Shown one piece after another: positions 3,588-30,307 of a stretch of 30,307 nucleotides of DNA. The first letter of the stretch is position 1. Every line of letters starts with the position of its first letter. The stretch comes from a virus. Its lineage: Duplodnaviria > Heunggongvirae > Uroviricota > Caudoviricetes. The stretch lies in IMG/VR virus record IMGVR_UViG_638341084_000020, one strand, 5' to 3'. A model generated the notes under the pieces. The model was not told where the DNA came from. It did not search any database and saw only the letters and a list, made by a program, of their open reading frames with translations. A program made the position numbers and the translations under genes.

Positions 3588-3596
3588 ATTCACCCC

Positions 3597-4317: not shown

Positions 4318-7719
<3,402 letters not shown>

Positions 7720-7776
7720 TCACGCTCCATAAACGATAAAACCGCCCGGAGGCGGTTTCACATAAAACATTTTGCA

Positions 7777-9065: not shown

Positions 9066-9070
9066 GGGAT

Positions 9071-9769
9071 TCACTGCGAAAGTTTGTTAATGGAAAGGAA
9101 GCCGCCAAAGTTGCCGACGTTATTGCGAAACTTACAGCCGCTCAGGCATTTGCTGCATTTATCCTTCGTGATATCGGACGTCGGCTGATCATATTCATCC
9201 GCGACCGCCGGACCGTGATAACCGCACTCGTCACCGCGATAGGTCCAGGTGCAGGTGTTGGCCAGCATGATGCGCCCCGGAAAAACGGCACCGTCCGTTT
9301 CCGTCGGCGTGGACAGTACAAAAGAGGCACTCACCGCGCTCAGTTCGCTGCACTGCTCGATGCGCCAGCGGCTGATCACCTCCTGCTCCGGATCGGCGTA
9401 ACTGTTTCCGTTGACGAAGTTCACCGCATCCAGAAAACGGGCGTAAACCTTACGCCGGACCACCGTTCCGCCGACCAGACTCTGCATATCTTCCGCCATC
9501 CCGGTGACCATACCGTACAGGTTAGAAACCGTCAGCGTGGGGCGCGTACTGGTGCCTTTGCCATTCAGTTCAAAACCGCTCCCCTGAATGGGATACGGCT
9601 GATACTGTCGCCCCTGCCAGGTGACCGGCTCACCTTTTTCGTTCTGCTCATTACAGAAAAAATAACGTTCTCCACCGACCTCTGTCAGGTCGATTTCCCA
9701 GAGCACCACGCTGGCCGACTGCTCCGCACGGGTGCATTCATTCAGTGTTTCCTGCCGGATATCCTGCAT
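9071..9769 (-). CDS. L: Tail tip protein L, 232 aa
   Basis: MQDIRQETLNECTRAEQSASVVLWEIDLTEVGGERYFFCNEQN... matches lambda L; same length; start overlaps the M stop. Confidence 0.92.
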   Translation of the reverse strand: MQDIRQETLNECTRAEQSASVVLWEIDLTEVGGERYFFCNEQNEKGEPVTWQGRQYQPYPIQGSGFELNGKGTSTRPTLTVSNLYGMVTGMAEDMQSLVGGTVVRRKVYARFLDAVNFVNGNSYADPEQEVISRWRIEQCSELSAVSASFVLSTPTETDGAVFPGRIMLANTCTWTYRGDECGYHGPAVADEYDQPTSDITKDKCSKCLSGCKFRNNVGNFGGFLSINKLSQ

Positions 9770-10098
9770 CAGTTCACCACCTGTTCAAACTCTGCGCTGA
9801 ACTCAACACGCAGCATACTGACCCGCGACGACCATTTTGCGCAGGTCACCTTTATCTGCCGCCACTCATAAGGCGGCGTCCACAGAAAGGATTTCCAGCC
9901 CCCGTGCTCTTCCAGAAACGACTCCAGTACCGTGGCCTCCTCACGGGGGACAGAAAGCGTCACGCTGTACGTTTTCAGGTTGGCATTCAGCCCGGCAGGC
10001 GCTCGCTGAGAATAGCCATCACCAAAGCGCACCTTTCTTACAGAAGGGACCGAAGCCACATCCATACCGGGTTTCACTTTCCAGCGGAAGGTCTTCAT
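9769..10098 (-). CDS. M: Tail tip protein M, 109 aa
   Basis: MKTFRWKVKPGMDVASVPSVRKVRFGDGYSQRAPAGLNANLKTYSVTLSVP... matches lambda M; start overlaps the H stop. Confidence 0.92.
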   Translation of the reverse strand: MKTFRWKVKPGMDVASVPSVRKVRFGDGYSQRAPAGLNANLKTYSVTLSVPREEATVLESFLEEHGGWKSFLWTPPYEWRQIKVTCAKWSSRVSMLRVEFSAEFEQVVN

Positions 10099-12656: not shown

Positions 12657-13083
12657 ACCGGACTCCTCCTGCGATCCCTTCTGATACTGTCATCAGCATT
12701 ACGTCATCCTCCGTCATGTCCGCCACATCCGGGGAAGCGGGGATAACTTCATTCCCGTCCGGGCCAAAGCGGACACCTCCGGCAAGCCCTGCCGCTTTCT
12801 GCATCAGCACATCATCTTCAGGCTCTTCGTCAGCCTCGCGCCGGTTCAGCAGACTGAAATCCAGCGGATGCATATCCGGATCGCTGAAAAACAGGCTGAG
12901 CACGGTGTACGTCAGCCCGGAAAAGTGCATATCCAGCAGAACATCATGAAAATAATGGGTACTGTAAAAGCGGTGCCAGTCGGCATACTCCGTGGATGAC
13001 ATCCCGGCAAGCATGGCACGCCAGTCGGGTCGCCCCATCTCACGCGCCAGTTTCAGGGCAAAACTCAGCTCACCGTCGAACAC
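12649..13083 (-). CDS. T: T segment of the G-T tail assembly chaperone (expressed as a G-T fusion by -1 programmed frameshift; not an independent gene)
   Basis: ORF in the -1 frame relative to G, overlapping the G 3' end, matching lambda T; slippery heptamer at the end of G. Confidence 0.8.
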   Translation of the reverse strand: MFDGELSFALKLAREMGRPDWRAMLAGMSSTEYADWHRFYSTHYFHDVLLDMHFSGLTYTVLSLFFSDPDMHPLDFSLLNRREADEEPEDDVLMQKAAGLAGGVRFGPDGNEVIPASPDVADMTEDDVMLMTVSEGIAGGVRYG

Positions 13084-13487
13084 TTTCCCGCAGAAACAGG
13101 CTCTGCGGGCCCGGCGTCCTCTGTCTGTTCAGGGGCATTATTCACCACAAACTCATACATACCAGACAGCCGGTACACCACGTTTTCAGCATGAGAAATT
13201 GCCTCCGTGGGCCAGGTGGTAAGCACTTCCTGCTCAATCTGTTTAACGGCTTCATTCATGGACGGCATCTGCGTCTTCTGCGGATGGTTATGCCACAGGG
13301 ACATCGCCACCAGAAACGCGCCGGTTCTGATGGCGTCTTCCACAGTAAACTTCCGGTTGCTGTCTGACTCCGCCTGTTCTGCCTGCCGTTTCATCAGGGC
13401 GAGATGCTCAATGCGCTGCAGGGCTGACAGTTCAGAAAGCGTGACGGTCACACCGTTATGTTCAAATGATTCGGTTTTCAGGAACAT
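13065..13487 (-). CDS. G: Tail assembly chaperone G, 140 aa
   Basis: MFLKTESFEHNGVTVTLSELSALQRIEHLALMKRQAEQAESD... matches lambda G. Confidence 0.92.
   Translation of the reverse strand: MFLKTESFEHNGVTVTLSELSALQRIEHLALMKRQAEQAESDSNRKFTVEDAIRTGAFLVAMSLWHNHPQKTQMPSMNEAVKQIEQEVLTTWPTEAISHAENVVYRLSGMYEFVVNNAPEQTEDAGPAEPVSAGKCSTVS
13084..13090 (-). promoter_or_regulatory. Programmed -1 ribosomal frameshift slippery heptamer GGGAAAG (G to G-T)
   Basis: Minus-strand GGGAAAG (plus-strand CTTTCCC) at the codons for ...SAGK... near the end of G, exactly where lambda shifts frame to make gpG-T. Confidence 0.75.
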
Positions 13488-13502
13488 CGCTGACTCTCCG
13501 GA

Positions 13503-14243
13503 TTAACTGGCGGTGACGGTAATTTCTGCAACCGCAGCAAACTCACCATTACCGGATACAACCGGAATGTTGACCTTGCCTGCAGCAACGCCGTTCACGG
13601 TGATGGTCATACCACTGACCGACACGGTGGCTTTTGTTTTATCCGCAGACACCGCACGAAAGCTCTTGTCGGTTACGCCCTCCGGCTGGAAGGCCACGGT
13701 CAGCGTGGTGCTCTGCCCTTTCACCACCGAGGTGCTGGAAGGCGTCACGGTCATGCCGGTTGCCGCTGTTACCGTGCTGCGATCTTCTGCCATCGACGGA
13801 CGTCCCACATTGGTGACTTTCACCGTGCGGGTGATCACTTCCTTCGCCGTCACCGCCTTACCGATACTGCTGACCCAGCCACGGAACACATCGACCGTGC
13901 CGTTCGGGAAGCGGATTTTATAGGCACGGGTATCGCCTTCATTAAACCACGCCAGCAGCGCCTGCTGCCCCTGCTCTCCGGGCATCCACGCCAGCGTGAA
14001 GCTGGTATCTCCGGCAGATTTCTGCCCCTGCCCGGTCGCAGTCCAGTCTGCATCTTCATCATCGAGATAGCTGTCGTCATAGGACTCAGCGGTCAGTTCG
14101 CCGGGCGTCAGGTCTTTAACTTTTGCCAGACGCGACCAGTCAACGTCTGAAAGCGGATTCGCATAAGGGTCACCGCTCCCCTTATAAACCCACAGGGTGG
14201 TCCCGGCACCTTTCACCGGCATTGTAGGATTTGGTACAGGCAT
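13503..14243 (-). CDS. V: Major tail tube protein V, 246 aa (C-terminal Ig-like domain)
   Basis: [45 protein letters not shown]... matches lambda V. Track ORF extends 10 codons further upstream; start chosen by homology and spacing after U. Confidence 0.9.
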
Positions 14244-14250
14244 AGCGTCC

Positions 14251-14646
14251 TCACATTTCATAGGTAATGACATAAGTCAGATCGGCTGAACTCCACAGGC
14301 CCGCATCATCGTCGCGCCGGTAGTCATAGCCACTGGCCACCATACTGGTGATCAAATCTGACAGTGCCGGGATATCGCTCATCACCGGATAAATCCGGGA
14401 CTCCATCCACGCATCCAGCTCTGAATCCGGCACCTGAGCAGGCAGGAAAACTTCGATATGCAGCTCCGCCTGCCAGGTATCGCTGTCCAGCTCTTCGCCC
14501 GTGTATTCAGCGCCGGTGAGATAAACGGCAACTGCCGGAAAATCCGCCTCATCAAAAACAGCGGGGCGACCATCAAAAAACGTCGCCCCGGTGTCATGCT
14601 TCTCCAGTGCATCCAGTACGGCTGCACGGAGTTCAGTATGTTTCAT
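14251..14646 (-). CDS. U: Tail terminator protein U, 131 aa
   Basis: [51 protein letters not shown]... matches lambda U. Confidence 0.92.
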
Positions 14647-15221
14647 CGCTTTATTACCATCCTCAGTTGATGCTGCAGCGCATAGCCCAGCTCTTTCGGA
14701 AGACGTTCACGCCGTATCCGCTCAATATTTTGTTTAAACGCCGTGGTCAGCGGCACCGCCATCGGGATTTTCACCACATCAATGGGGTAACGGTTTTTCC
14801 CGGCCACACGCTGCATGACATGCCACCGGCCATTTTTCAGTTGCTGAATAAACGCGCCGGGAATACGACGGTTACCCACCACAAGCACGCTGCCGCCACC
14901 TTTCAGGGATGAACGCTGCCCCTTTTTACGACGCCTGCGGCGCGAAAGGACAACCCGCGCATTACCCAGCTTGATTACGGGCAAATCCCCCCGGTTAACT
15001 TTGATTCTGGCCTGCGGATTTTTGACCGTGGCCCTTTTCAGCCTGGCCCTTTCCTTTACCAGTTTCCGGCGTACCTTTGTCTCACGGGCAACCTGTGACG
15101 CCGACTGCGATATCGCGGATGAAGCAACGCGGTTAATGGCCATTGCGGCGGCACCAGGCACCGCCGTTTTGCTGATACGGCTGAGGTTTTCAACGGCCTG
15201 CTCAAGACCTTTTATGGCCAT
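14643..15221 (-). CDS. Z: Tail completion protein Z, 192 aa
   Basis: MAIKGLEQAVENLSRISKTAVPGAAAMAINRVASSAISQ... matches lambda Z; 4-nt overlap with U. Confidence 0.92.
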   Translation of the reverse strand: MAIKGLEQAVENLSRISKTAVPGAAAMAINRVASSAISQSASQVARETKVRRKLVKERARLKRATVKNPQARIKVNRGDLPVIKLGNARVVLSRRRRRKKGQRSSLKGGGSVLVVGNRRIPGAFIQQLKNGRWHVMQRVAGKNRYPIDVVKIPMAVPLTTAFKQNIERIRRERLPKELGYALQHQLRMVIKR

Positions 15222-15232
15222 ACATCCCCCTT

Positions 15233-15586
15233 TCAGCGGCGACGGTTAACGGCAGGCGGTACGCCCCGTCCAAGCCAGAGATGACAACTTCCGCCATCAT
15301 CCGGCGAAACCCGATCTACCCAGAAATTTTCCTCACCGATGGTCAGCGTGTCTCCACGCCGCAGCTGCCGCACCTCATCAGTCCGGACAAACAGGGACGG
15401 GCTGGAGCCTTCAACGCGCACGCCCTGTCCGGCATAGCTGATATTTTCAGGGTCATCAAAAACACCACGTATCACCGCACCTGACTGCTCACCGGATGTA
15501 ATGGTGGCTGACGTTCCCATGTACCCGCGTATCGTTTCATCGGCGCGGGCAATGGCAGCATCGAACAGGTTATCGAAATCAGCCAC
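15233..15586 (-). CDS. FII: Head-tail joining protein FII, 117 aa
   Basis: MADFDNLFDAAIARADETIRGYMGTSATITSGEQSGAVIRGVFDDPENISYAGQG... matches lambda FII. Confidence 0.92.
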   Translation of the reverse strand: MADFDNLFDAAIARADETIRGYMGTSATITSGEQSGAVIRGVFDDPENISYAGQGVRVEGSSPSLFVRTDEVRQLRRGDTLTIGEENFWVDRVSPDDGGSCHLWLGRGVPPAVNRRR

Positions 15587-15597
15587 AGCGCCTCCCG

Positions 15598-15996
15598 TTA
15601 TTGCATTCTGGCCAGGCCGCGCTCTGTCATTTCGGCTGCCACACCGGCAGAGACACGAAACGCCGTTCCCGGCAGCACAAATGCCACAGGTTCATCCCGC
15701 GTGGCGTGAAGTGCATCAGTATGCAGCTTCACCAGTGCCACGACCGTGACCAGTTCAGACGTATCCAGAATCACGGTATCCGGCTGCGCTGATCCCACCT
15801 CATTTTCATGTCCGGTCAGCACATTTTCCCGGCTGAGAGGGGTGTCCTGACCGGCAGTTTCATCCGTGTCATCAAGCTCCTCTTCCAGCTCTGCCACACG
15901 GAGCGCCAGTTCTTCTTTCGTCCCCGTCAGGCTGACATCACGGTTCAGTTGTTCACCCAGCGAGCGGAGACGGGCAATCAGTTCATCTTTCGTCAT
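15598..15996 (-). CDS. FI: DNA packaging protein FI, 132 aa
   Basis: MTKDELIARLRSLGEQLNRDVSLTGTKEELALRVAELEEELDDTDETAGQ... matches lambda FI; start is the 14th codon of the track ORF. Confidence 0.88.
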   Translation of the reverse strand: MTKDELIARLRSLGEQLNRDVSLTGTKEELALRVAELEEELDDTDETAGQDTPLSRENVLTGHENEVGSAQPDTVILDTSELVTVVALVKLHTDALHATRDEPVAFVLPGTAFRVSAGVAAEMTERGLARMQ

Positions 15997-16037
15997 GGAC
16001 TCCTCCACAGAGAAACAATGGCCCCGAAGGGCCATGA

Positions 16038-17099
16038 TTACGCCAGTTGTACGGACACGAACTCATCAGGGTCAGCCAGCAGCATCAGCGGTGCTGACTG
16101 AATCATGGTGAACTCACGCGCCGGATCGCCGGTGGTCACCCAGTTTTTCGGGTAACGGGCAGAGGCGTTAATGCCTTCGCGCTGTGCGTCCGCATCCTGA
16201 ATGCAGCCATAGGTGCGCAGACCGCGTGCCTGAGTGTTCCCCAGCACCATCGTGTTGTCCGGCAGGAAGTTCTTTTTGACGCCGTTTTCCACGTACTGTC
16301 CGGAATACACGACGATGGCCACATCGCCATACATCCCCTTATAGGACACCGCTTTACCTAGGTCTTTCACCGCTGTCTCCAGCTCGGAATTAGAGCCACG
16401 ACGGGTATCCAGCTTCTCCTTGACGGCTTTGAAGGAACGGAACAGCGCCCAGCCTTTCGGATCGAACACGATGATATTCACCACACCGCTGGCGTTCAGC
16501 GCGTAGGCTTCGATATCGTCGGTCGGGTCATACGTGGACTTGTCACGCTTGCTCCACTCCGTGCCGCCGGACTGCGTGATGTTATTCTCCTCACTGCGGC
16601 CCATATCCACCTCAACCGGATCGAAGGCTTCACCGGTCATGGTGTATTTGCCCTTAAGCACGGCAGAAACTGCCTGCATCTCTTCGACCTGAGCAATGGC
16701 CAGCTCTTCGTCACGCATGTTCTGCATGATGATGCGACGGCGGCGGTAAGCCGGGTCCGCCAGATTCTGCGGATCTTCATCCGGCAGGCGACGCAGGGTC
16801 ATCTGCGGATCTTCATCCGGCAGGCGACGCAGGGTCATCTGCGGATTCACTTCATGCTTCGGCTTGACATATCCCGGCGTAAATTCAGAGGTGGAGCCGC
16901 CACGGGAACGGATAACCTCACCGGAAACAATCGGCGAAACGTACAGCGCCATGTTTACCAGTCCCGGAATTTGTGAGAGATAGACTTTCTCCGTGGTGAA
17001 GGGATAGCTCTCACGGAAAAAGAGACGCAGAAACAGCGGATCAAACTTAAATTTCTGCTCATTTGCCGCCAGCAGTTGGGCGGTTGTGTACATCGACAT
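16038..17099 (-). CDS. E: Major capsid protein E, 353 aa, carrying an in-frame 12-aa tandem duplication relative to lambda E (341 aa)
   Basis: MSMYTTAQLLAANEQKFKFDPLFLRLFFRESYPFTTEKVYLSQIPGLVNMALYVSPIVSGEV... matches lambda E throughout, except that MTLRRLPDEDPQ occurs twice in tandem. Confidence 0.92.
   Translation of the reverse strand: MSMYTTAQLLAANEQKFKFDPLFLRLFFRESYPFTTEKVYLSQIPGLVNMALYVSPIVSGEVIRSRGGSTSEFTPGYVKPKHEVNPQMTLRRLPDEDPQMTLRRLPDEDPQNLADPAYRRRRIIMQNMRDEELAIAQVEEMQAVSAVLKGKYTMTGEAFDPVEVDMGRSEENNITQSGGTEWSKRDKSTYDPTDDIEAYALNASGVVNIIVFDPKGWALFRSFKAVKEKLDTRRGSNSELETAVKDLGKAVSYKGMYGDVAIVVYSGQYVENGVKKNFLPDNTMVLGNTQARGLRTYGCIQDADAQREGINASARYPKNWVTTGDPAREFTMIQSAPLMLLADPDEFVSVQLA
16767..16838 (-). 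repeat. Perfect 36-bp direct tandem duplication inside E (encodes MTLRRLPDEDPQ twice)
   Basis: Two identical adjacent 36-nt units (plus-strand unit ctgcggatcttcatccggcaggcgacgcagggtcat) corresponding to E track residues 97-108 and 109-120. Confidence 0.9.
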
Positions 17100-17154
17100 A
17101 AAAAAATCCCGTAAAAAAAGCCGCACAGGCGGCCTTTAGTGATGAAGGGTAAAG

Positions 17155-17487
17155 TTAAACGATGCTGATTGCCGTTCCGGCAAACGCGGTCCGTTTTTTC
17201 GTCTCGTCGCTGGCAGCCTCCGGCCAGAGCACATCCTCATAACGGAACGTGCCGGACTTGTAGAACGTCAGCGTGGTGCTGGTCTGGTCAGCAGCAACCG
17301 CAAGAATGCCAACGGCAGCACCGTCGGTGGTGCCATCCCACGCAACCAGCTTACGGCTGGAGGTGTCCAGCATCAGCGGGGTCATTGCAGGCGCTTTCGC
17401 ACTCAATCCGCCGGGCGCGGTTGCGGTATGAGCCGGGTCACTGTTGCCCTGCGGCTGGTAATGGGTAAAGGTTTCTTTGCTCGTCAT
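17155..17487 (-). CDS. D: Capsid decoration protein D, 110 aa
   Basis: [52 protein letters not shown]... matches lambda D; track ORF begins 2 codons upstream. Confidence 0.92.
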
Positions 17488-17496
17488 AAACATCCC

Positions 17497-18102
17497 TTAC
17501 ACTGGTGTGTTCAGCAAATCGTTAACGGCATCAGATGCCGGGTTACCTGCAGCCAGCGGTGCCGGTGCCCCCTGCATCAGACGATCCAGCGCAGTGTCAC
17601 TGCGCGCCTGTGCACTCTGTGGTGCTGCGGCCAGAATGCGGCGGGCCGTTTTCACGGTCATACCGGGGGTTTCTGCCAGCACGCGTGCCTGTTCTTCGCG
17701 TCCGTGAGCCTCCTCACAGTTGAGGATCCCCATAATGCGGCTGTTTTCTGCCGCAACCGCTGCGGTGATCTGCGCGTTCACGTCCGGCTGCGCCGCGCTG
17801 GCGTTCTCGCCCTCCGTCGCTGGCACCACGTCAGTAACGTCAGCCTGCGAAGCAGTGGCTGAAACAGTTGTTGATTGAGTCTCTTTGGTCATTCGCCCTC
17901 CTGAGAGACGGGATTTACGTGCATCCAGTGCATCACGCATGACGGTGATCGCATCGGTGCTGTTAACAAGTTCATCAGCCAGTCCGGCATCAATGGCCTC
18001 CTGACCGCTGTACACTGCAGCCTCGGTATCCAGCACAGCCTGCACGGACAGGCCGGTATATGCCGACACCTTCTGCGCAAACATCCGGCGGGTTGCGTCC
18101 AT
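17497..18102 (-). CDS. Nu3: Capsid scaffolding protein Nu3, 201 aa, nested in-frame in the 3' part of C
   Basis: Internal in-frame start at MDATRRMFAQKVSAYTGLSVQ...; the lambda Nu3 arrangement shares frame and stop with C. Confidence 0.6.
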   Translation of the reverse strand: MDATRRMFAQKVSAYTGLSVQAVLDTEAAVYSGQEAIDAGLADELVNSTDAITVMRDALDARKSRLSGGRMTKETQSTTVSATASQADVTDVVPATEGENASAAQPDVNAQITAAVAAENSRIMGILNCEEAHGREEQARVLAETPGMTVKTARRILAAAPQSAQARSDTALDRLMQGAPAPLAAGNPASDAVNDLLNTPV

Positions 18103-18796
18103 CCGGGACTGCAGTGTCTCCCGGACGTCATCCGGAAGATGGCTGTAGGGGTTGCCATCCACCTTATGGCTGCCGCTGTAAATCAGCGTGATTTCCACAC
18201 CCTGTTTCTCCAGCGCAGCACCGTAATTACTGTGAGCCATCATGACGCCGATGGAGCCTGTCCGGGCGGTCTGCGTGACCAGACGCCGGGAGGCGGCACT
18301 GGCAAGCAACTGACCTGCACTGCAGTTCATGTCGTTGGCAAGCGCCCATACCGGTTTTATGTCACGCACACGGGCGATGATGTCAGCGCAGTCAAATGCC
18401 CCCGCCACCATCCCGCCGGGCGTGTCCATATCGAGCAGAATGCCGTCCACCATCGGATCGCTGGCAGCCTGTTGCAGACGGGCGATAATGCCGTTGTAAC
18501 CGGTCATCCCCGAGTACGGCTGCAGCGCCCGCGTCCGGCTGACCAGCGTGCCGGACACCGGCAGCACGGCGATGCCGTTCATGACCTGATAACTGCGGGC
18601 CTGTCGTGGTCCGTCATCATCACCGGATAATGCCAGCGTCGCGAGTGCCTCCTGGGCAGTCAGGCTGTCGCCGGACACCGCATCCGTCAGGCGGCTGATC
18701 CCAAGCTGGCCTGCAAGCGCACAAAAGAAAACCCGCGCATAGGCGGGTTCAAGCATCAGCGGCTCATTAAAGGCCATGCTGGCAATATGCGGGAGA

Positions 18797-18816
<20 letters not shown>
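17497..18816 (-). CDS. C: Capsid assembly protease C, 439 aa, GTG start
   Basis: (M)TAELRNLPHIASMAFNEPLMLEPAYARVFFCALAGQ... matches lambda C; GTG start preceded by a strong AGGAGG ribosome-binding site and overlapping the last 20 nt of B, as in lambda. Track ORF extends further upstream inside B and is probably not the real start. Confidence 0.85.
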
Positions 18817-22497
<3,681 letters not shown>

Positions 22498-22523
<26 letters not shown>

Positions 22524-23043
22524 TCAGCAACCCCGGTATCAGTTCATCCAGCGCGGCTGCTTTGTTCATGGCTTTGATGATATCCCGTTTCAGGAAATCA
22601 ACATGTCGGTTTTCCAGTTCCGGAAAACGCCGCTGCACCGACAGGGGGAGCCCGTCGAGAATACTGGCAATTTCACCTGCGATCCGCGACAACACGAAAG
22701 TACAGAATGCGGTTTCCACCACTTCAGCGGAGTCTCTGGCATTCTTCAGTTCCTGTGCGTCGGCCTGCGCACGCGTAAGTCGATGGCGTTCGTACTCAAT
22801 AGTTCCTGGCTGGAGATCTGCCTCGCTGGCCTGCCGCAGTTCTTCAACCTCCCGGCGCAGCTTTTCGTTCTCAATTTCAGCATCCCTTTCGGCATACCAT
22901 TTTATGACGGCGGCAGAGTCATAAAGCACCTCATTACCCTTGCCACCGCCTCGCAGAACGGGCATTCCCTGTTCCTGCCAGTTCTGAATGGTACGGATAC
23001 TCGCACCGAAAATGTCAGCCAGCTGCTTTTTGTTGACTTCCAT
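22498..23043 (-). CDS. Nu1: Terminase small subunit Nu1, 181 aa
   Basis: MEVNKKQLADIFGASIRTIQNWQEQGMPVLRGGGKGNEVLYDSAAVIKWYAERDAEIENEKLRREVEEL... matches lambda Nu1; overlaps the A start by 26 nt as in lambda. Confidence 0.95.
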
Positions 23044-23059
23044 TGTTCATTCCACGGCC

Positions 23060-23265
23060 AAAAACAGAGAAAGGAAACGACAAAGGCCCAAAAGTTCGTT
23101 TTCAGCACCTGTCGTTTCCTTTCTTTTCAGGGGGTATTTTAAATAAAAACATTAAGTTACGACGAAGAAGAACGGAAACGCCTTAAACCGGAAAATTTTC
23201 ATAAATAGCGAAAACCCGCGAGGTCGCCGCCCCGTAACCTGTCGGATCGCCGGAAAGGACCCGCA
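23060..23265. other. cos: cos site: cosB (three GGAAACG/CGTTTCC R elements at about 23065-23185), cosN 12-nt cohesive end (plus-strand AGGTCGCCGCCC at about 23221..23232) and cosQ side (to about 23265)
   Basis: Reverse complement of the lambda cohesive end GGGCGGCGACCT is read directly, flanked on the Nu1 side by repeated GGAAACG-type elements and on the other side by sequence resembling the lambda right end. Confidence 0.85.
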
Positions 23266-23431
23266 AAATGATAATAATTATCATCTACATGTCACAACGT
23301 GCATCTACGCCATCAAACCACGTCAAATAATCAATTATGACGCAGGTATCGTATTAATTGATCCGCATCAACTTAACGTAAAAACAACTTCAGACAATAC
23401 AAATCAGCGACACTGAATACGGGGCAACCTC

Positions 23432-23626
23432 ATGTCAACGAAGAACAGAACCCGCAGAACAACAACCCGCAACATCCGCTTTCCTAACCAAATGATTGAA
23501 CAAATTAACATCGCTCTTGATCAAAAAGGGTCCGGGAATTTCTCAGCCTGGGTCATTGAAGCCTGCCGTCGGAGGCTAACGTCAGAAAAGAGAGCATATA
23601 CATCAATTAAAAGTGATGAAGAATGA
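23432..23626 (+). CDS. ylcI: Small ribbon-helix-helix-like protein, 64 aa (YlcI-like, DUF3950)
   Basis: MSTKNRTRRTTTRNIRFPNQMIEQINIALDQKGSGNFSAWVIEACRRRL...; basic N-terminus, then a beta-strand / helix / G-x-N turn / helix pattern typical of CopG/Arc/MetJ folds; I recall the 64-aa DLP12 YlcI as similar. Confidence 0.6.
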   Translation: MSTKNRTRRTTTRNIRFPNQMIEQINIALDQKGSGNFSAWVIEACRRRLTSEKRAYTSIKSDEE

Positions 23627-23790
23627 ACATCCCGCGTTCTTCCCTCCGAACAGGACGATATTGTAAATTCACTTAATTACGAGGGCATTGCAGTAATTGA
23701 GTTGCAGTTTTACCACTTTCCTGACAGTGACAGACTGCGTGTTGGCTCTGTCACAGGTTAAGTAGTTTGAATGATTAGCAGTTATGGTGA

Positions 23791-23997
23791 TCAGTCAACC
23801 ACCAGGGAATAATCCTTCATATTATTATCGTGCTTCACCAACGCTGCCTCAATTGCCCTGAATGCTTCCAGAGACACCTTATGTTCTATACATGCAATTA
23901 CAACATCAGGGTAACTCATAGAAATGGTGCTATTAAGCATATTTTTTACACGAATCAGATCCACGGAGGGATCATCAGCAGATTGTTCTTTATTCAT
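23791..23997 (-). CDS. ybcW: Small hypothetical protein, 68 aa (YbcW-like)
   Basis: ATG start with GGAG ribosome-binding site; [41 protein letters not shown]...; same size and position as the 68-aa ORF near the lambda right end and DLP12 ybcW, as recalled. Confidence 0.55.
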
Positions 23998-24282
23998 TTT
24001 GTCGCTCCATGCGCTTGCTCTTCATCTAGCGGTTAAAATATTACTTCAAATCTTTCTGTATGAAGATTTGAGCACGTTGGCCTTACATACATCTGTCGGT
24101 TGTATTTCCCTCCAGAATGCCAGCAGGACCGCACTTTGTTACACAACCAATACTATTAATTGAAAACATTCCTAATATTTGACATAAATCATCAACAAAA
24201 CACAAAGAGGTCAGACCAGATTGAAACGATAAAAACGATAATGCAAACTACGCGCCCTCGTATCACATGGAAGGTTTTACCA

Positions 24283-24693
24283 ATGGCTCAGGTTGCCATT
24301 TTTAAAGAAATATTCGATCAAGTGCGAAAAGATTTAAACTGTGAATTGTTTTATTCTGAACTAAAACGTCACAATGTCTCACATTATATTTACTATCTAG
24401 CCACAGATAATATTCACATTGTGTTAAAAAACGATAACGCTGTGTTAATAAAAGGACTTAAAAAGGTTGTAAATGTTAAATTCTCAAGAAATACGCATCT
24501 TATAGAAACGTCCTTTGATAGGTTGAAATCAAGAGAAATCACATTTCAGCAATACAGGGAAAATCTTGCTAAAGCAGGAGTTTTCCGATGGGTTACAAAT
24601 ATCCACGAACATAAAAGATATTACTATACCTTTGATAATTCATTACTATTTACTGAGAGCATTCAGAACACTACACAAATCTTTCCACGCTAA
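24283..24693 (+). CDS. ybcV: Hypothetical protein, 136 aa (YbcV-like, DUF1398)
   Basis: ATG at 24283 ([30 protein letters not shown]...) preceded by GGAAGG about 8 nt upstream. The track ORF (24160) starts at an upstream TTG; 24241 is another possible ATG. Function unknown. Confidence 0.55.
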
Positions 24694-24983
24694 ATCATAA
24701 CGTCCGGTTTCTTCCGTGTCAGCACCGGGGCGTTGGCATAATGCAATACGTGTACGCGCTAAACCCTGTGTGCATCGTTTTTAATTATTCCCGGACACTC
24801 CCGCAGAGAAGTTCCCCGTCAGGGCTGTGGACATAGTTAATCCGGGAATACAATGACGATTCATCGCACCTGACATACATTAATAAATATTAACAATATG
24901 AAATTTCAACTCATTGTTTAGGGTTTGTTTAATTTTCTACACATACGATTCTGCGAACTTCAAAAAGCATCGGGAATAACACC

Positions 24984-25277
24984 ATGAAAAAAATGCTACT
25001 CGCTACTGCGCTGGCCCTGCTTATTACAGGATGTGCTCAACAGACGTTTACTGTTCAAAACAAACAGACAGCAGTAGCACCAAAGGAAACCATCACCCAT
25101 CATTTCTTCGTTTCTGGAATTGGGCAGAAGAAAACTGTCGATGCAGCCAAAATTTGTGGCGGCGCAGAAAATGTTGTTAAAACAGAAACCCAGCAAACAT
25201 TCGTAAATGGATTGCTCGGTTTTATTACTTTAGGCATTTATACTCCGCTGGAAGCGCGTGTGTATTGCTCAAAATAA
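24984..25277 (+). CDS. bor: Bor lipoprotein (serum-resistance, Iss-like), 97 aa
   Basis: MKKMLLATALALLITGCAQQTFTVQNKQTAVAPKETITHHFFVSGIGQKKTVDAAKICGG..., near-identical to lambda Bor; lipobox LITGC; opposite strand to the late operon, as in lambda. Confidence 0.93.
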   Translation: MKKMLLATALALLITGCAQQTFTVQNKQTAVAPKETITHHFFVSGIGQKKTVDAAKICGGAENVVKTETQQTFVNGLLGFITLGIYTPLEARVYCSK

Positions 25278-25308
25278 TTGCATGAGTTGCCCATCGATAT
25301 GGTCAGCT

Positions 25309-25782
25309 CTATCTGCACTGCTCATTAATATACTTCTGGGTTCCTTCCAGTTGTTTTTGCATAGTGATCAGCCTCTCTCTGAGGGTGAAATAATCCCGTT
25401 CAGCGGTGTCTGCCAGTCGGGGGGAGGCTGCATTATCCACGCCGGAGGCCGTGGTGGCTTCACGCACTGACTGACAGACTGCTTTGATGTGCAACCGACG
25501 ACGACCAGCGGCAACATCATCACGCAGAGCATCATTTTCAGCTTTCGCATCAGCTAACTCCTTCGTGTATTTTGCATCGAGCGCAGCAACATCACGCTGA
25601 CGCATCTGCATGTCAGTAATTGCCGCGTTCGCTAGCTTCAGTTCTCTGGCATTTTTGTCGCGCTGGGCTTTGTAGGCGATTGCGTTATCACGGTAATGAT
25701 TGACCGCCCATGACAGGCTGACGATGATGCAGATAATCAGAGCGGATATAATCGCGGTTACTCTGCTCACTGTTGCCCCCAC
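25309..25782 (-). CDS. Rz: Spanin inner-membrane subunit Rz (i-spanin), 157 aa
   Basis: ...[59 protein letters not shown]... matches lambda Rz / DLP12 RzpD; N-terminal transmembrane segment plus coiled-coil region. Confidence 0.9.
25368..25550 (-). CDS. Rz1: Spanin outer-membrane lipoprotein subunit Rz1 (o-spanin), 60 aa, embedded in Rz in the +1 frame
   Basis: [60 protein letters not shown]; lipobox LVVVGC and proline-rich mature region, as in lambda Rz1. Confidence 0.88.
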
Positions 25783-26264
25783 AAACAGACTTCACGCTCA
25801 ATCTCACGACGAGTCATCAGGCCTTTCCATTGCTTACCGCCAGCGTATGTCCAGCGACGCAGCTGATCACATGCGCCTTTGATATCGCCCTGGTTTATTT
25901 TGCGAAGAAGCGTCGATGTTCTAAAATTGCCAGCACCCACATTGTAAACGAATGAGTAAAGAGCGCCGCGCGTTGTTTCCGGTATATCGACTTTGATATA
26001 CGGGTTAATTTGTCTGGCGACAGTGGCAAGGTCTTTATTCAAGAGTGCTTTGCATTCTGCTTTGGTATACGTTTTACCGAGCATGATGTCTTTTCCGGTG
26101 TGTCCGTGACATACAGTCCATACACCAACAATATCTTTGTATGGTATGTAGCTGACACCTTCCAGACCATCGTTACCACTTGGGCCAGTGATTAACACTG
26201 ATGCTATAGCAATTGCTCCGCCACCAATAGCAGCAGCAACGGCTTTTCGTAATGATGGAGGCAT
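25767..26264 (-). CDS. R: SAR endolysin R (phage-21-type T4-lysozyme-fold muramidase with N-terminal signal-anchor-release domain), 165 aa
   Basis: Gly/Ala-rich weakly hydrophobic N-terminal segment ([18 protein letters not shown]) followed by E35...D44...T50 spacing ([18 protein letters not shown]), the catalytic triad arrangement I recall for R21. Not the lambda transglycosylase R. Confidence 0.88.
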
Positions 26265-26479
26265 TATTCACCTCTCGCAGCCTTGCGCTTATCTTCTTTA
26301 ATCTTGAAATAAAGGTTTGTCAGGTACGTCAGCAGGCCAAATACCAGGCTACCCAGCACACCTATTGCTGCCCACTGTGAGGGAGTGACTTTATCGAGCA
26401 GCTGTAAAAACCAGTAACCGGCACTACCTGCTGAGGTGCCATAGGCGACTCCAGTTGTTAACTTATCCATGAATTTCAT
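26264..26479 (-). CDS. S: Pinholin / antiholin S (phage-21 S21 type), 71 aa with dual start (Met1 antiholin, Met4 holin)
   Basis: [71 protein letters not shown]; two transmembrane segments and a charged C-terminus; M-K-x-M dual-start motif. Track ORF extends 15 codons upstream. Confidence 0.85.
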
Positions 26480-27067
26480 AACCCCACCTCGCAGACAAAG
26501 CGGGTGTAAATTGAGGGAATACAACGTATCGCAAAAAAGCAGAAACGTAACTGACTCCGAGTCAGTGAATAACTCAGGTATTGAGTTATCAGCTAATATC
26601 GAGACTCAAAAAATGGAAAAACCAGCTCGACGGCGGGTTTAAGCTGTGTGACGAAGTAACCACTCTTAACAGCATAACCAATTTTTTACGTACGTAAACC
26701 ACTGAATGATATTTATGAGAATGCTACCGAGTGTTCAAAACATCACAACAAATACATAAGAAAACCTCAACAAATAACCAATAAATAATTTCCAGTGTTA
26801 TTTTTAGCCGGTTTAAATTAAACAGACGAATTATAGAACCACCATAAATAACAGCCATTAATATAAATTAGCTAATAGATTTATTTTTGTTCAAATAAGA
26901 GCCATAAATAGGTTTCGATAGAAAAAGTTCAGATAAAAATAGAGATCTACTTCACAAATTAAATGAGAAACTAAAACTTACATCTTGAAATAATCACATT
27001 GATTAGATGAATATTTATCGCGCAGTGACATCATTTTTTAATAATAGTTCAAAAAAAAGGGCTCACG

Positions 27068-28165
27068 ATGAAAAAATTAACAGTGGCAATTTCTGCTGTA
27101 GCTGCATCAGTACTGATGGCGATGTCTGCTCAGGCAGCTGAAATTTATAATAAAGACAGTAACAAGCTGGATCTGTACGGGAAAGTTAATGCCAAGCACT
27201 ACTTTTCCTCTAACGATGCAGATGATGGTGATACTACTTATGTTCGTCTGGGCTTCAAAGGCGAAACCCAAATCAACGATCAGCTGACTGGTTTCGGTCA
27301 GTGGGAATATGAATTCAAAGGCAACCGCGCTGAATCTCAAGGTTCCTCCAAAGACAAAACCCGTCTTGCATTTGCAGGCCTGAAATTCGGTGACTACGGC
27401 TCAATCGATTACGGCCGTAACTACGGTGTAGCATACGACATCGGTGCGTGGACTGACGTTCTGCCAGAATTCGGTGGCGATACCTGGACCCAAACAGATG
27501 TGTTCATGACTGGTCGCACCACTGGTGTTGCAACCTATCGTAACAACGACTTCTTTGGTCTGGTTGATGGTCTGAACTTTGCTGCTCAGTACCAAGGCAA
27601 AAACGATCGTAGCGATTTCGATAACTACACCGAAGGTAACGGTGATGGCTTCGGTTTCTCTGCTACCTATGAATACGAAGGATTCGGTATCGGTGCAACT
27701 TATGCGAAATCTGATCGTACCGACACTCAAGTTAATGCAGGGAAAGTTCTTCCTGAAGTATTTGCTTCCGGTAAAAATGCAGAAGTTTGGGCCGCAGGTC
27801 TGAAATATGACGCTAACAACATTTACCTGGCCACTACCTATTCTGAAACCCAGAATATGACTGTATTTGCTGATCACTTCGTTGCTAATAAAGCTCAAAA
27901 CTTCGAAGCTGTTGCACAATATCAGTTCGATTTCGGTCTGCGTCCGTCCGTTGCTTACCTGCAATCTAAAGGTAAGGATCTTGGAGTATGGGGCGATCAG
28001 GACTTAGTCAAATATGTTGATGTAGGTGCAACCTATTACTTCAACAAAAATATGTCTACTTTCGTTGATTACAAAATCAACCTGCTTGACAAAAATGACT
28101 TCACTAAAGCACTCGGTGTAAGCACTGATGACATCGTTGCTGTAGGTCTGGTTTACCAGTTCTAA
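27068..28165 (+). CDS. nmpC: Prophage-encoded general porin (OmpC/OmpF/PhoE superfamily; NmpC/Lc type), 365 aa, intact
   Basis: Signal peptide [23 protein letters not shown], then [24 protein letters not shown]...; C-terminal ...VAVGLVYQF (terminal Phe) typical of 16-strand porins; AAGGG ribosome-binding site; sits between Q and S on the opposite strand, as nmpC does in DLP12 and lc in PA-2. Gene symbol is by analogy and not certain. Confidence 0.85.
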
Positions 28166-28172
28166 TCTGATT

Positions 28173-28215
28173 ACGAAAAAGATATGTTGCGGGAGGCGTT
28201 GCCTCCCCAACATAT
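28173..28215 (-). terminator. Candidate intrinsic terminator downstream of Q (possible tR'-like late terminator)
   Basis: About 15-bp imperfect stem (ATATGTTGGGGAGGC ... GCCTCCCGCAACATAT) followed on the minus strand by CTTTTTCG; lies in the Q-to-porin gap. Confidence 0.4.
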
Positions 28216-28294
28216 AAGTGACTCCCTCAAGCCACTTCCTTTAGGAGCACAACCTTGCTTCTAACTATATAAACCTTCTGTTATATATTACCCT

Positions 28295-28330
28295 TTATTT
28301 TTGGGGGCGTTGCAACGCCCCATTTTTAAT
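28295..28330 (+). terminator. Candidate intrinsic terminator for the porin transcript
   Basis: Palindrome GGGGCG-TTGCAA-CGCCCC followed on the plus strand by ATTTTTAAT; about 135 nt after the porin stop. Confidence 0.4.
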
Positions 28331-28354
28331 AACTTTCAGTAAACAATTGGCATA

Positions 28355-28738
28355 TTAATTAGAGTTATTAACAACGATATCCATCTCTAATCGGATATCT
28401 AATGCCATTAACATCCCTTCAATTATGCCCTCAGCCTTCTGTAACCTTTTCCCGATATAACCATCAGAGCAGCAATGCTTACCTGCCAGTGACATGAATG
28501 TCATACCGACTACATAATAATCTACTAATAAATCGTGCAAATCGCTGTTGTTCTTTTTCAGACGGGCCATGCACCCGCAAATAATCATCGCGTCATCGTC
28601 ACAACATTGCGGGCGAGATTTTACTTTTGAAGGAATTAATCCCTTAAAACCGGCGGCAATGGACGACCAGGTCACATCTTCATGATTATTAGCCACCCAC
28701 GCTCCCCAACGTTCAAGAACCATCTGAATATCACGCAT
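28355..28738 (-). CDS. Q: Late-gene antitermination protein Q (phage-82 / DLP12 QuuD type), 127 aa
   Basis: [62 protein letters not shown]... matches the 127-aa DLP12 QuuD as recalled; Cys-rich zinc-binding region. Track ORF starts 5 codons upstream (28753). Confidence 0.85.
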
Positions 28739-28755
28739 TAACTTTCTCCACAAAA

Positions 28756-29751
28756 TCAGGCCAGCACACCAATCGCCAGTGCGCGATCGATAAAACGAAA
28801 TATCAGCTCCAGCTGGGAGCCATACTTCTCTTCAAATGCCACGGTATCCGCATGCAGTTCGTCGTGGTGTTTTCTGCACAAAGGCAGCACAAAAAGGTCA
28901 TGCGCTTTTGTACCCATTCCACCCTGACCATGGCCTATCAGATGATGCGGATCATCAGCTGGCTTTCCACAACATGCACACGGCTGTGTCTTAACCCTGC
29001 GCGTGTACTTTTCATTAACCCAGCGGCGACGTTTTGGGCGTAACATAAAAGACTCCGGCGACTCCGGATCCACTTTCAGCGCCAGCACCTTTTTCGCCTT
29101 ATCCTGGATGATGCTGGTGGCAGGAACCGAAGGCACAAGGTCACTTTCCCGGGTAACAGACGGCACAACAGGCTTCGGTAATCTCAGTGCCTTACGGGCT
29201 GCACTTTCCGGTAAGGCATCCGCCAGATCATTACGAATCAGCCACCAGCACAGTTCCGGCATTGTCACAACGTGACTGTCATCAAAACCGAGATCCCGAC
29301 GCACAACAGACAACACCCAGCGGGCACAGTTATCCGTTGCCATTGATTCCAGCCGTTCCGTGAACTGATCGCGCAGCTGGTTATCGCAGTGCCAGCACAG
29401 ACGGATTGCACCCGGAGCGTGTCGCATTGTGGTCATGTTCTCGCTGTGCCAGTCGGAATGAGGCCACTGGCAGCCTTTTTCACGAAGTAACCAGCTTTCA
29501 AGACATTCCACGCCACCAGCACGACGGATCACTGCCTCATTGCGGAACACGGCCCGAACGGCAGGATCATCCGCCAGCGGTTGTGATGCCGCCGGAACGG
29601 CACCACTGGCGAAAGATGAATAACGCTCCGGCTCAGGCTCCAGCAGGACACGCCCCTGCATAAACAGGGGCATCAGCTCTGAACCTGGCCTGAACAATAC
29701 GATCCCCATACGCGGGGCAATTTCAGGGGTCAGTAGTGCTCTCACGGTCAC
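28756..29751 (-). CDS. Cys/His-rich prophage protein, 331 aa (probably DUF968 / YdfU-like)
   Basis: Sits immediately upstream of Q as ydfU does upstream of quuQ in Qin; C-terminal [43 protein letters not shown] and an internal CWHCDNQ suggest metal-binding, possibly HNH-like; family assignment is from memory only. Confidence 0.55.
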
Positions 29752-29752
29752 C

Positions 29753-30307
29753 TCAATGAACGGTATCGAGCAGCTTTAACAGCTCAGGGAATCGGGATTC
29801 GAAGAAATGCGGCTGTGTCTCGCGCGGATTTGCGGGACTGGTGATGTTCTTGCCGAACATGCAACCTTTCGCTGTCAGCGACCAGAATTTTTTGATGTTG
29901 TTAATCGCTGTACGGCTGTATCGTTCGCGCTGCTCGACGATCCCCAGTTTCACCATCTAGTGATATGCCTGATTAGCCGTCAGGCGTATACCATACTGTT
30001 TCAGCAGTGCACTCAGTGACAGTGTCGGGCGACTTGAGCCATCGTGTGCATCAGCAGGAGCATCAATGGCATAGCGCGGTGCCAGATTCGGTAAGCCAAC
30101 AGCCTCCTGGAGTTTCTGACAGGCACCAAGCACTGAAGAGTTAGACAGGTTTAACTCCCGGCGCATAAAGTCCAGCAGGATCACGCCAGCCTGCATCTTG
30201 TCAGCAGCCTGTCCGGATAATTTTTCCGGTGCGCTGGTTACCATATCGAAAGTACGGATCACCTTCAGATGGAATGACGGGCTGATCCACATTGCATAGG
30301 CATACAC
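29753..30307 (-). pseudogene. Putative antirepressor-type regulatory protein (KilAC/Ant-like C-terminal region), 5' end outside the window, interrupted by a single in-frame TAG at 29957..29959
   Basis: ORFs 29957..30307 and 29753..29956 are in the same frame and separated only by one TAG; the downstream ORF begins at the ATG directly after the stop with no convincing ribosome-binding site; ...LLKQYGIRLTANQAYH * MVKLGIVEQRERYSRTAINNIKKFWSLTAKG reads like one continuous domain. Confidence 0.4.

Follow-up and report, generated by a model that had tools for sequence, protein, structure and literature searches.

A DLP12-family lambdoid prophage region with a Q21-family antiterminator, a porin gene and phage-21-type lysis genes beside lambda-like structural genes

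The window, which is the whole 30,307-nucleotide stretch of DNA that was analysed, represents the late half of an intact DLP12-family lambdoid prophage encoded on the minus strand, and the feature under study is its late-control and lysis region; we put the probability of this reading at about 0.9. The late region combines a Q21-family antiterminator, a porin gene, a phage-21-type pinholin and a SAR endolysin, and is joined to lambda-like spanin, packaging, head and tail genes. In the phage direction, the order is Q, an intergenic region with a presumed late promoter, Q-loading site and terminator, the antisense porin gene, S, R, Rz/Rz1, bor, ybcV, ybcW, ylcI, cos, Nu1/A, and the head and tail genes. 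The late genes within the window (Q, Nu1, A, head, tail, J and side fibre) are all intact. This arrangement is ordinary and long known in E. coli DLP12-family prophages, and little about it is new. A preliminary description of this DNA had recognized a non-lambda Q/S/R set joined to lambda-type morphogenesis genes. That core stands, both as an observation and in its interpretation, but the phage-82 label given to Q, an exchange placed at Nu1/cos, the extent assigned to the module and the use of base composition as a marker do not.

Late-control and lysis genes

The features of the region are listed below in the phage direction.

28355-28738, minus strand: Q, QuuD-type antiterminator of 127 aa, Q21 family (PF06530 and identity to QuuD)
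28216-28354, minus strand: Q-porin intergenic region, with the presumed PR' and Q-loading site (from its position between Q and the first terminator)
28304-28321, plus strand: hairpin and T-run, candidate terminator of the porin transcript (scan and folding)
28176-28215, minus strand: candidate tR' intrinsic terminator, a 15-bp bulged hairpin followed by CUUUUU (RNA fold; putative function)
27068-28165, plus strand: intact OmpC/NmpC-type porin gene, 365 aa, antisense to the late operon, between Q and S (PF00267)
26264-26479, minus strand: S, pinholin/antiholin with dual start, 71 aa from 26479 and 68 aa from 26470
25767-26264, minus strand: R, SAR endolysin, 165 aa, T4-lysozyme-like muramidase (PF00959)
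25309-25770, minus strand: Rz, i-spanin, 153 aa, GTG start (PF03245)
25368-25550, minus strand: Rz1, o-spanin lipoprotein, inside Rz in another reading frame (PF06085)

Q matches the full PF06530 profile (positions 1-118 of 118) at 180.7 bits against a cut-off of 26, and its amino acid sequence is 98.4% identical to that of DLP12 QuuD. Its start is probably the ATG at 28738, as in quuD, rather than the listed TTG at 28753. In a published mapping of the families to Pfam, PF06530 corresponds to Q21, PF06323 to Q82 and PF03589 to Q-lambda (PMC9388147). Neither PF06323 nor PF03589 matched Q in the profile search. The Q82-like Q of wild-type phage 434 (OL657226), which was used as a stand-in for phage 82 and itself matches PF06323 at 306.8 bits, gave no blastp match to our Q (E>10). 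Comparison with the lambda Q protein returned only a chance 6-residue match. The earlier assignment of Q to the phage-82 type therefore gives way to the Q21 family. Q is 30% identical to Q21 over 125 aa (blastp, E 6e-13) and matches the Q21 structures PDB 6P18/6JNX in phmmer (E 2e-8). It is 35 aa shorter than Q21, and the ~25 C-terminal Q21 residues that are absent include the six that touch RNA polymerase in the Q21 structure. This limited identity and the missing contacts suggest that details of Q loading may differ from those of Q21. The NCBIfam search assigned Q, S, Rz and the DUF968 protein to no named family.

S matches the Pfam family ‘P21 holin S’ (PF04971, E 2e-35), the family of class II holins of the S21 type, and is 84.5% identical to S21 over 71 aa and 98.6% identical to EssD. 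Its dual start, M1-K2-F3-M4, is encoded by GAGGTGGGGTT followed by ATG AAA TTC ATG, and these start codons are preceded by GAGGTGGGG; phage 21 S is annotated likewise, with a 71-aa antiholin and a 68-aa holin. In the hydropathy profile, TMD2 (residues ~36-56) is strongly hydrophobic, and TMD1 (~8-26) is weakly hydrophobic and rich in Gly, Ala and Ser. R has the same sequence as RrrD (100% identity) and is very close to R21 (98.8%); it matches the structures of R21 (PDB 3HDE) and RrrD (PDB 4ZPU) over its full length (E 1e-111). The catalytic triad E35, D44 and T50 is present with the spacing E-8aa-D-5aa-T. Residues 8-27 form a Gly/Ala-rich N-terminal segment of moderate hydropathy that is identical to that of RrrD. 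This segment has the character of a signal-anchor-release sequence, and its release from the membrane is predicted. These data bear out the preliminary description of S as an S21 pinholin with dual start and of R as a SAR endolysin rather than the lambda transglycosylase. In protein comparisons, S had no match to lambda S, and R had only an 11-residue match (E 3) to the lambda R transglycosylase. Rz is 97.4% identical to lambda Rz, 99.3% to DLP12 RzpD and 94.8% to phage 21 Rz, and Rz1 is 96.7% identical to lambda Rz1 and 100% to DLP12 RzoD. Judged by their sequences, Rz and Rz1 likely constitute a two-component spanin pair.

The porin scores 521 bits against PF00267 and 527.8 bits against NCBIfam NF007841, the OmpC subfamily, which has a cut-off of 484. 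It is full length, and its N-terminal 23-residue segment fits a signal peptide. At the DNA level the gene is 93-99.6% identical to nmpC of K-12; the IS5 that interrupts nmpC there is absent here. Related phages annotate the counterpart as porin or OmpD. The porin is a lysogenic-conversion ‘moron’ and could alter the outer membrane of the lysogen; the annotation of this DNA should include an intact prophage porin. The preliminary description made no mention of the gene.

The intergenic region is 98-99% identical to those of K-12 DLP12 and PhiR29_1. Between Q and the hairpin, a sigma-70 consensus promoter scan found nothing, and neither a direct-repeat Q-binding element nor a sigma-dependent pause element was identified. 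The hand-picked hexamers TTGCAA and TAATAT, 19 nt apart, were considered as the late promoter and set aside: they are weak, K-12 has TTGAGA, and no promoter position is claimed. The candidate tR' hairpin and U-run lie 140 nt downstream of Q and are identical in K-12 DLP12 and PhiR29_1. The terminator scan missed this bulged hairpin (28215-28182), and folding confirmed it, with a free energy of -21.3 kcal/mol, a z score of -5.6 and none of 200 shuffles as stable. Rfam had no match in the Q-to-lysis region, and a tRNA scan found no tRNA in the region.

A working scheme can be drawn by analogy, with the antitermination, pinholin and SAR steps taken over from studies of phage 21, lambda and DLP12. 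The porin and bor would act as conversion genes, each expressed in the lysogen from its own promoter. Q would load on RNA polymerase paused just past the late promoter and make it resistant to terminators, as in phage 21 and lambda. The modified polymerase would then pass tR' and the antisense porin gene into S, R and Rz/Rz1, and continue across cos to the morphogenesis genes. The SAR endolysin would be exported by Sec and held inactive, tethered to the inner membrane. The relative amounts of 71-aa antiholin and 68-aa holin would time pinholin triggering, which would depolarise the membrane and free the endolysin, and the spanins would next disrupt the outer membrane. Transcription of the late operon would have to run head-on across an intact porin gene that is expressed independently and has its candidate terminator in the presumed late-promoter region. 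For this reason the Q-modified polymerase could silence the porin by transcriptional collision at the lytic switch. Separately, a short QuuD-type Q that lacks the polymerase-contacting tail of Q21 could load differently from Q21. We regard the two proposals taken jointly as a long shot.

Junctions with lambda-like DNA

The features that define the junctions and the DNA between R and the packaging genes are as follows.

28773/28774, unstranded: recurrent mosaic joint, 35 nt upstream of the Q start, in the last DUF968 codons (end of matches)
25769/25770, unstranded: onset of lambda homology at the R stop/Rz start overlap GTGA (no blastn match to lambda on the R side)
24984-25277, plus strand: bor lipoprotein gene, an antisense moron of the lambda-type allele (PF06291)
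23233-24983, unstranded: AT-rich right end in common with lambda, holding ybcV, ybcW and ylcI
24160-24693, plus strand: ybcV/lambdap78
23791-23997, minus strand: ybcW/lambdap79
23432-23626, plus strand: ylcI, DUF3950
23221-23232, minus strand: cos cohesive end GGGCGGCGACCT, an exact match, with lambda 48502/1 at 23233/23232

Homology to lambda is unbroken from J through cos to the first codon of Rz (window 4760-25769), and none was found beyond. The window from 4760 to 23232 is 97.8% identical to lambda 18461-1 overall and mostly 99-100% identical between 9.3 and 23 kb, and identity to the lambda counterparts is mostly 94-100% for the head and tail genes, in agreement with the near-identity described earlier. 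On the other side of cos, window 23233-25769 is 98.2% identical to lambda 45967-48502 (blastn). The two blastn matches abut at cos (23233/23232), and the cos site is intact. Within 23233-24983, which has Pfam matches to PF07166 and PF13132, identity to lambda 46.7-48.5 kb is 97-100% in most 100-bp windows and 92-94% in the final ~150 bp beside cos. Bor is 96.9% identical to that of lambda, 91.8% to that of phage 21 and 89.7% to that of 434/434B, and its DNA is 98-100% identical to both lambda and K-12 DLP12. The exchange that had been placed at Nu1/cos is thus contradicted by lambda homology that continues through cos, ylcI, ybcW, ybcV, bor, Rz1 and Rz to 25769. The segment 25309-25770, which had been included in the non-lambda module, consists of Rz/Rz1 and is lambda-like at 97-99%.

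Q, S and R have no match to lambda DNA in blastn. The results that would have spoken against a non-lambda module, namely uniform lambda identity or best matches of Q, S and R to lambda Q, S105 and R, were not seen: at the protein level there was either no match or one with E>3. The block that is non-homologous to lambda extends from the exact R/Rz gene boundary to the window end, an instance of gene-boundary mosaicism. The DNA beyond 28773/28774 is also non-lambda and carries DUF968 and KilA-N genes. The matches of K-12 DLP12 and 434B stop at 28773, and most related phages begin matching at query position 1535, which is window position 28773. An exchange at the Q boundary, as proposed earlier, is partly borne out by a recurrent joint just upstream of Q, but the boundary with lambda homology is the R/Rz overlap (25769/25770).

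The structural genes have a GC content of 0.57, and the stretch at 23-28.5 kb has one of 0.37-0.49. The compositional shift noted in the preliminary description is real. However, about half of the AT-richer tract (23233-25277) is homologous to lambda, with a GC content of 0.396 compared with 0.400 in its counterpart at the lambda right end. Since lambda's own right end is equally AT-rich, base composition does not mark a junction here, and the AT-rich tract on the cos side is native lambda-type DNA rather than a sign of exchange.

Origin of the arrangement

K-12 DLP12 itself was used as the DLP12 reference; DLP-12 is also named Qsr (PMC5811629). Phage 434B was dropped as a stand-in, since its crossover inside Rz makes it misleading to the right of Rz. 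K-12 DLP12 matches window 28773-22216 at ~98% identity (individual matches 97.3-97.9%), with 90.8-100% in 250-bp windows and the lowest values between porin and S. The match then jumps from window 22216 to 526, after which comes the tail-fibre assembly gene tfaD. The window is therefore an undeleted member of the K-12 DLP12 (Qsr') lineage, and shows K-12 DLP12 as it was before the loss of head and tail genes and the splitting of nmpC by IS5. A 100% identical copy is found in E. coli O111:H2 12A beside tRNA-Arg (argU) with intD, between fimZ and the prophage, as in K-12. From this identical copy we infer integration at argU with intD for the prophage in the window, both of which lie outside the window. 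Among 5,426 complete E. coli genomes, 199 carry at least 80% of window 25200-30307.

A lambda phage might instead have picked up a phage-21/82 Q-S-R module in recent times, with exchange points at Q and at Nu1/cos, and so be comparable to the laboratory lambda qsr' recombinants. Such a graft would account for head and tail genes that are 99-100% identical to lambda over long stretches alongside non-lambda Q, S and R, and the annotation of phage 434B indicates that exchanges with DLP12 happen. It would not account for lambda identity that runs to the Rz start with no breakpoint at Nu1/cos, for a Q outside the Q82 family, for the non-lambda DUF968 and KilA-N genes upstream of Q, or for a J C-terminus and side tail fibre unlike those of lambda. 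Moreover, the identical prophage lies at argU with the DLP12 integrase, and the same Q-to-A' arrangement already exists in K-12 DLP12. We consider a recent graft very improbable. Because K-12 DLP12 has the same Q-to-A' stretch, the layout is the ancestral one of the DLP12 lineage. A graft of this kind, as a recent lambda x DLP12 recombinant, is largely refuted by the continuous lambda homology, the argU copy and the K-12 DLP12 layout.

Another view is that the prophage is cryptic and decaying, with a lysis cassette and porin that persist because they serve the host (through envelope maintenance, biofilm or vesicles) rather than phage lysis. A host-benefit role of the lysis cassette has reportedly been proposed for K-12 DLP12. 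The upstream KilA-N gene contains an in-frame TAG (amber) codon, marked ‘internal stop’ in RefSeq, which points in this direction, and a published report describes the lysis module of DLP12 in K-12 as conserved and transcribed (PMC7918800). However, the late genes from Q to J and the side fibre are all intact, as is cos, and a 99.5% identical sequence has been deposited as a phage genome with a named host. We find this explanation unlikely. The amber codon is a sign of some decay, and the prophage studied here may have lost part of its function. Our preferred reading remains an intact DLP12-family prophage of which the window holds the late half, and its structure is textbook lambdoid mosaicism with joints at gene boundaries.

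Comparison with known systems

Phage 21 (OL657228) shares S, R, Rz/Rz1 and bor with the window (91.8% DNA identity over window 24927-26480), and its Q also belongs to PF06530. However, its Q and promoter region have no DNA similarity to the window, and its DNA past bor is unlike that of the window. Between PR' and S, phage 21 carries two tRNA genes; in the window this place is taken by the antisense porin gene, and there is no tRNA.

Over the stretch that starts in J, takes in the head genes, Nu1, cos, lambdap79, lambdap78, bor and Rz1, and ends with Rz, lambda DNA is 97.8-98.2% identical to the window and has the same GC profile. Lambda differs in having a Q-lambda (PF03589), a class I holin S105/S107 and a transglycosylase R, and in having no porin gene. 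The J C-terminus, lom and stf regions also diverge.

The deposited phage PhiR29_1 (PV340556) agrees with window 20900-30307 at 99.5% identity, and its annotated genes follow the same order. It has Gln at the KilA-N amber codon of the window, and its tail region is ~97% identical, with gaps. Its relatives include PhiR26_1, mEp332, Turner, Kati and 434B, and many phages share window 28773-24927 or more.

The gene order and orientation of K-12 DLP12 are those of the window, quuD-nmpC-essD-rrrD-rzpD/rzoD-borD-ybcV-ybcW-ylcI-cos-nohD-aaaD'. It differs mainly by a deletion that starts inside gene A and reaches the tail-fibre assembly gene (roughly window 527-22215), leaving an A fragment joined directly to tfaD, and by IS5 in nmpC, which is intact in the window. 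Upstream of Q, K-12 DLP12 carries rusA and ylcG in place of the DUF968 and KilA-N genes of the window.

Lambda homology and base composition

The preliminary description saw a phage-21/82-type Q and lysis module grafted onto lambda-type morphogenesis genes. This observation is correct, but it is unremarkable lambdoid mosaicism that was already known, and the Q type and the breakpoints were misassigned. The long ORFs from ~300 to 30307 are all on the minus strand except a few antisense genes, and the Pfam families are unambiguous for every gene listed around the Q and lysis region.

Genes around Q and the lysis region assigned by Pfam, and the cos site, in phage direction (descending coordinates)
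30307-29753, minus strand, KilA-N gene
29751-28756, minus strand, DUF968/YdfU-family gene
28738-28355, minus strand, Q
27068-28165, plus (opposite) strand, porin gene
26479-26264, minus strand, S
26264-25767, minus strand, R
25770-25309, minus strand, Rz with embedded Rz1
24984-25277, plus strand (antisense), bor
24160-24693, plus strand (antisense), ybcV/lambdap78
23997-23791, minus strand, ybcW/lambdap79
23432-23626, plus strand (antisense), ylcI (DUF3950)
23232/23233, cos
23043-22498, minus strand, Nu1
below 22523, minus strand, A, then the head and tail genes

The head and tail proteins do come from genes of lambda type. The region 4760-23232 aligns to lambda 18461-1 at 97.8% identity, and most 250-bp windows at 9.3-23 kb are 99-100% identical to lambda. 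Q, S and R have no DNA match in the nucleotide alignment of the window with lambda, and their proteins bear no meaningful resemblance to those of lambda, as had been proposed. The reported decrease in G+C is also real (0.37-0.49 at 23-28.5 kb versus 0.57 in the structural genes). However, it does not mark an exchange at Nu1/cos. The region 23233-25769 matches lambda 48502-45967 at 98.2%, directly abutting the left-arm match at 23232, and the cohesive end, 12 bases long, occupies 23221-23232. Because lambda homology is uninterrupted across cos, the AT-rich DNA at 23.2-25.3 kb (G+C of 0.396, versus 0.400 in lambda) is lambda's own right end. Only the remaining half of the AT-rich tract, with R, S, the S-porin spacer (33% G+C), the porin gene and Q, is non-lambda.

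Several local departures from lambda were also observed. The ~150 bp adjoining the cos end (23233-23380) are 92-94% identical to lambda versus 99-100% to phage 434; on the cosQ side, they form a minor mosaic patch of their own. Amid DNA of 99-100% identity, the major capsid gene E is 86% identical to lambda in its 5' part (16808-17057) and the K/I region 71% (8058-8307); these two short patches resemble local mosaic replacements. In J, the final ~150 codons (4318-4760) gave no lambda match in the alignment, and the lom region matches in short patches only, at about 85-88%. The side tail fibre ORF (672-3593, 973 aa) matches lambda stf in patches only, at 79-89%. The host range is probably different from that of lambda. 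The sole Rfam match across the window, a full-model match to IS009 (RF02111, 224 bits), is at 132-330 on the minus strand, inside the tail-fibre assembly region.

Q, the lysis genes and their junctions

Q matches PF06530 with 180.7 bits across the entire profile. It is 98.4% identical to QuuD of DLP12, a cryptic prophage of E. coli K-12, and about 30% identical to Q21, whose structures it matches with an E-value of 2e-8. PF06530, PF06323 and PF03589 correspond to the Q21, Q82 and Q-lambda families, respectively (PMC9388147). The Q is thus of the Q21 family and not of the phage 82 type previously assigned. The Q of wild-type phage 434, annotated as Q82-like, matches PF06323, and protein comparison detected no similarity between it and the Q in the window.

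The assignments of S and R were borne out. S, a 71-residue PF04971 protein, begins with M-K-F-M after the ribosome-binding site GAGGTGGGG, consistent with a dual-start pinholin; it is 84.5% identical to S21 and 98.6% to EssD of DLP12. R shares 98.8% of its residues with R21 and 100% with RrrD, has full-length matches to the solved structures 3HDE and 4ZPU, and retains E35/D44/T50 and a Gly/Ala-rich N-terminal anchor, as expected of a SAR endolysin and not the lambda transglycosylase. Rz/Rz1 are 97% identical to their lambda counterparts and should not have been included in a non-lambda module at 25309-28753; the description of that interval correctly took in the non-lambda Q, S and R, but left the porin gene inside it unmentioned.

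The proposed Q-side joint exists, at 28773/28774, but the other joint is at R/Rz, where lambda homology ends at 25769/25770 in GTGA, the four bases in which the stop codon of R and the start codon of Rz overlap. Rz, Rz1 and the Rz-proximal 3' half of bor are 98-100% identical among lambda, phage 21, phage 434 and DLP12, and exchange has its natural homologous linker in this conserved stretch. Another recurrent joint is at 24927, just past the bor start codon, where homology is lost in phage 21 and 434 but continues in lambda and DLP12. On the Q side, the matches of K-12 DLP12 and of 434B, a phage whose annotation shows exchange with DLP12, end at 28773/28774, which falls within the final codons of the DUF968 gene, 35 nt ahead of the Q start. 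Since in the phage collection the matches of most relatives begin exactly there (query 1535), this is a recurrent mosaic joint.

The DNA past 28773/28774 is neither lambda nor K-12 DLP12. Directly upstream of Q, 28756-29751 (minus strand) encodes a 331-aa protein of the DUF968/YdfU family whose C-terminus has an HNH-like motif (PF06147; weak PF16784), whereas this slot holds NinI in lambda and rusA and ylcG in K-12 DLP12. The KilA-N gene contains an in-frame TAG (29957-29959, minus strand) at a Gln codon of its counterpart in the deposited Escherichia phage PhiR29_1. It represents a nonsense mutation or, alternatively, a suppressible amber, and may have a polar or inactivating effect; RefSeq labels the identical gene of E. 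coli O111:H2 strain 12A 'internal stop'.

The porin gene and late transcription

An intact gene for a 365-aa OmpC/NmpC-type porin (27068-28165, plus strand) is antisense within the late operon; in K-12, IS5 interrupts this gene (nmpC::IS5). It may have a lysogenic-conversion function and could be a site of collision with late transcription. In the Q-porin spacer, a bulged hairpin spans 28215-28182 and precedes CUUUUU; its fold energy is -21.3 kcal/mol (z -5.6), and it is identical in K-12 and PhiR29_1. A second hairpin (28304-28321), with a T-run on the plus strand, is a candidate terminator that would end the porin transcript ahead of Q. A promoter scan of the spacer located no late promoter, Q-binding element or pause element.

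By analogy with phage 21, lambda and DLP12, whose systems have been characterised, the region could work as follows. Within the 140-nt spacer between Q and the porin gene, Q would bind close to the late promoter and load onto promoter-proximally paused polymerase, which would then ignore terminators, the first being the hairpin at 28215-28182. Loading and readthrough have been described for Q21 (bioRxiv 651190). The transcript would cross the antisense porin gene before reaching S, R and Rz/Rz1. The SAR endolysin would be exported and kept inactive in the inner membrane until pinholin triggering collapses the membrane potential and releases it, and the spanins would afterwards breach the outer membrane. 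The porin gene and bor are antisense 'morons' that would be expressed in the lysogen.

Relation to DLP12

A recent graft of Q/S/R onto lambda is contradicted: lambda homology does not break at cos, the early-side DNA lying upstream of Q is non-lambda, DLP12 is arranged identically, and an identical copy has an argU/intD context. That copy, of 25200-30307, is in strain 12A, whose prophage is flanked by tRNA-Arg and intD and adjoins fimZ, the DLP12 site. At least 80% of this region is present in 199 of 5,426 complete E. coli genomes. A decaying cryptic element retained for host benefit is possible, as the TAG in the KilA-N gene would suggest; however, cos and every late gene are intact, and a deposited phage genome, PhiR29_1, is nearly identical (99.5% over 20900-30307). 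The capsid patch at 16808-17057 also differs from the strain 12A copy (90-96%).

The lambdoid mosaic of the window is of a familiar kind. Work of the 1970s and 1980s described lambda qsr' substitution phages and placed nmpC in the DLP12 prophage; at the corresponding position, phage PA-2 carries the related porin gene lc. DLP12 itself is long known as the 'Qsr' cryptic prophage (PMC5811629). Its gene order in K-12 is quuD, nmpC::IS5, essD, rrrD, rzpD/rzoD, borD, ybcV, ybcW, ylcI, nohD, aaaD' and tfaD, and it is 97-98% identical to 28773-22216, IS5 apart. The alignment then leaps from 22216, in terminase gene A, to 526-111, in the tail-fibre assembly gene (L006, the K-12 DLP12 sequence, 18660-18662). 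The leap defines the deletion that took all DLP12 head and tail genes. K-12 DLP12 is thus a prophage of the window's type after deletion from the interior of gene A to the tail-fibre assembly gene (~527-22215), with the lambda-like packaging region already part of DLP12.
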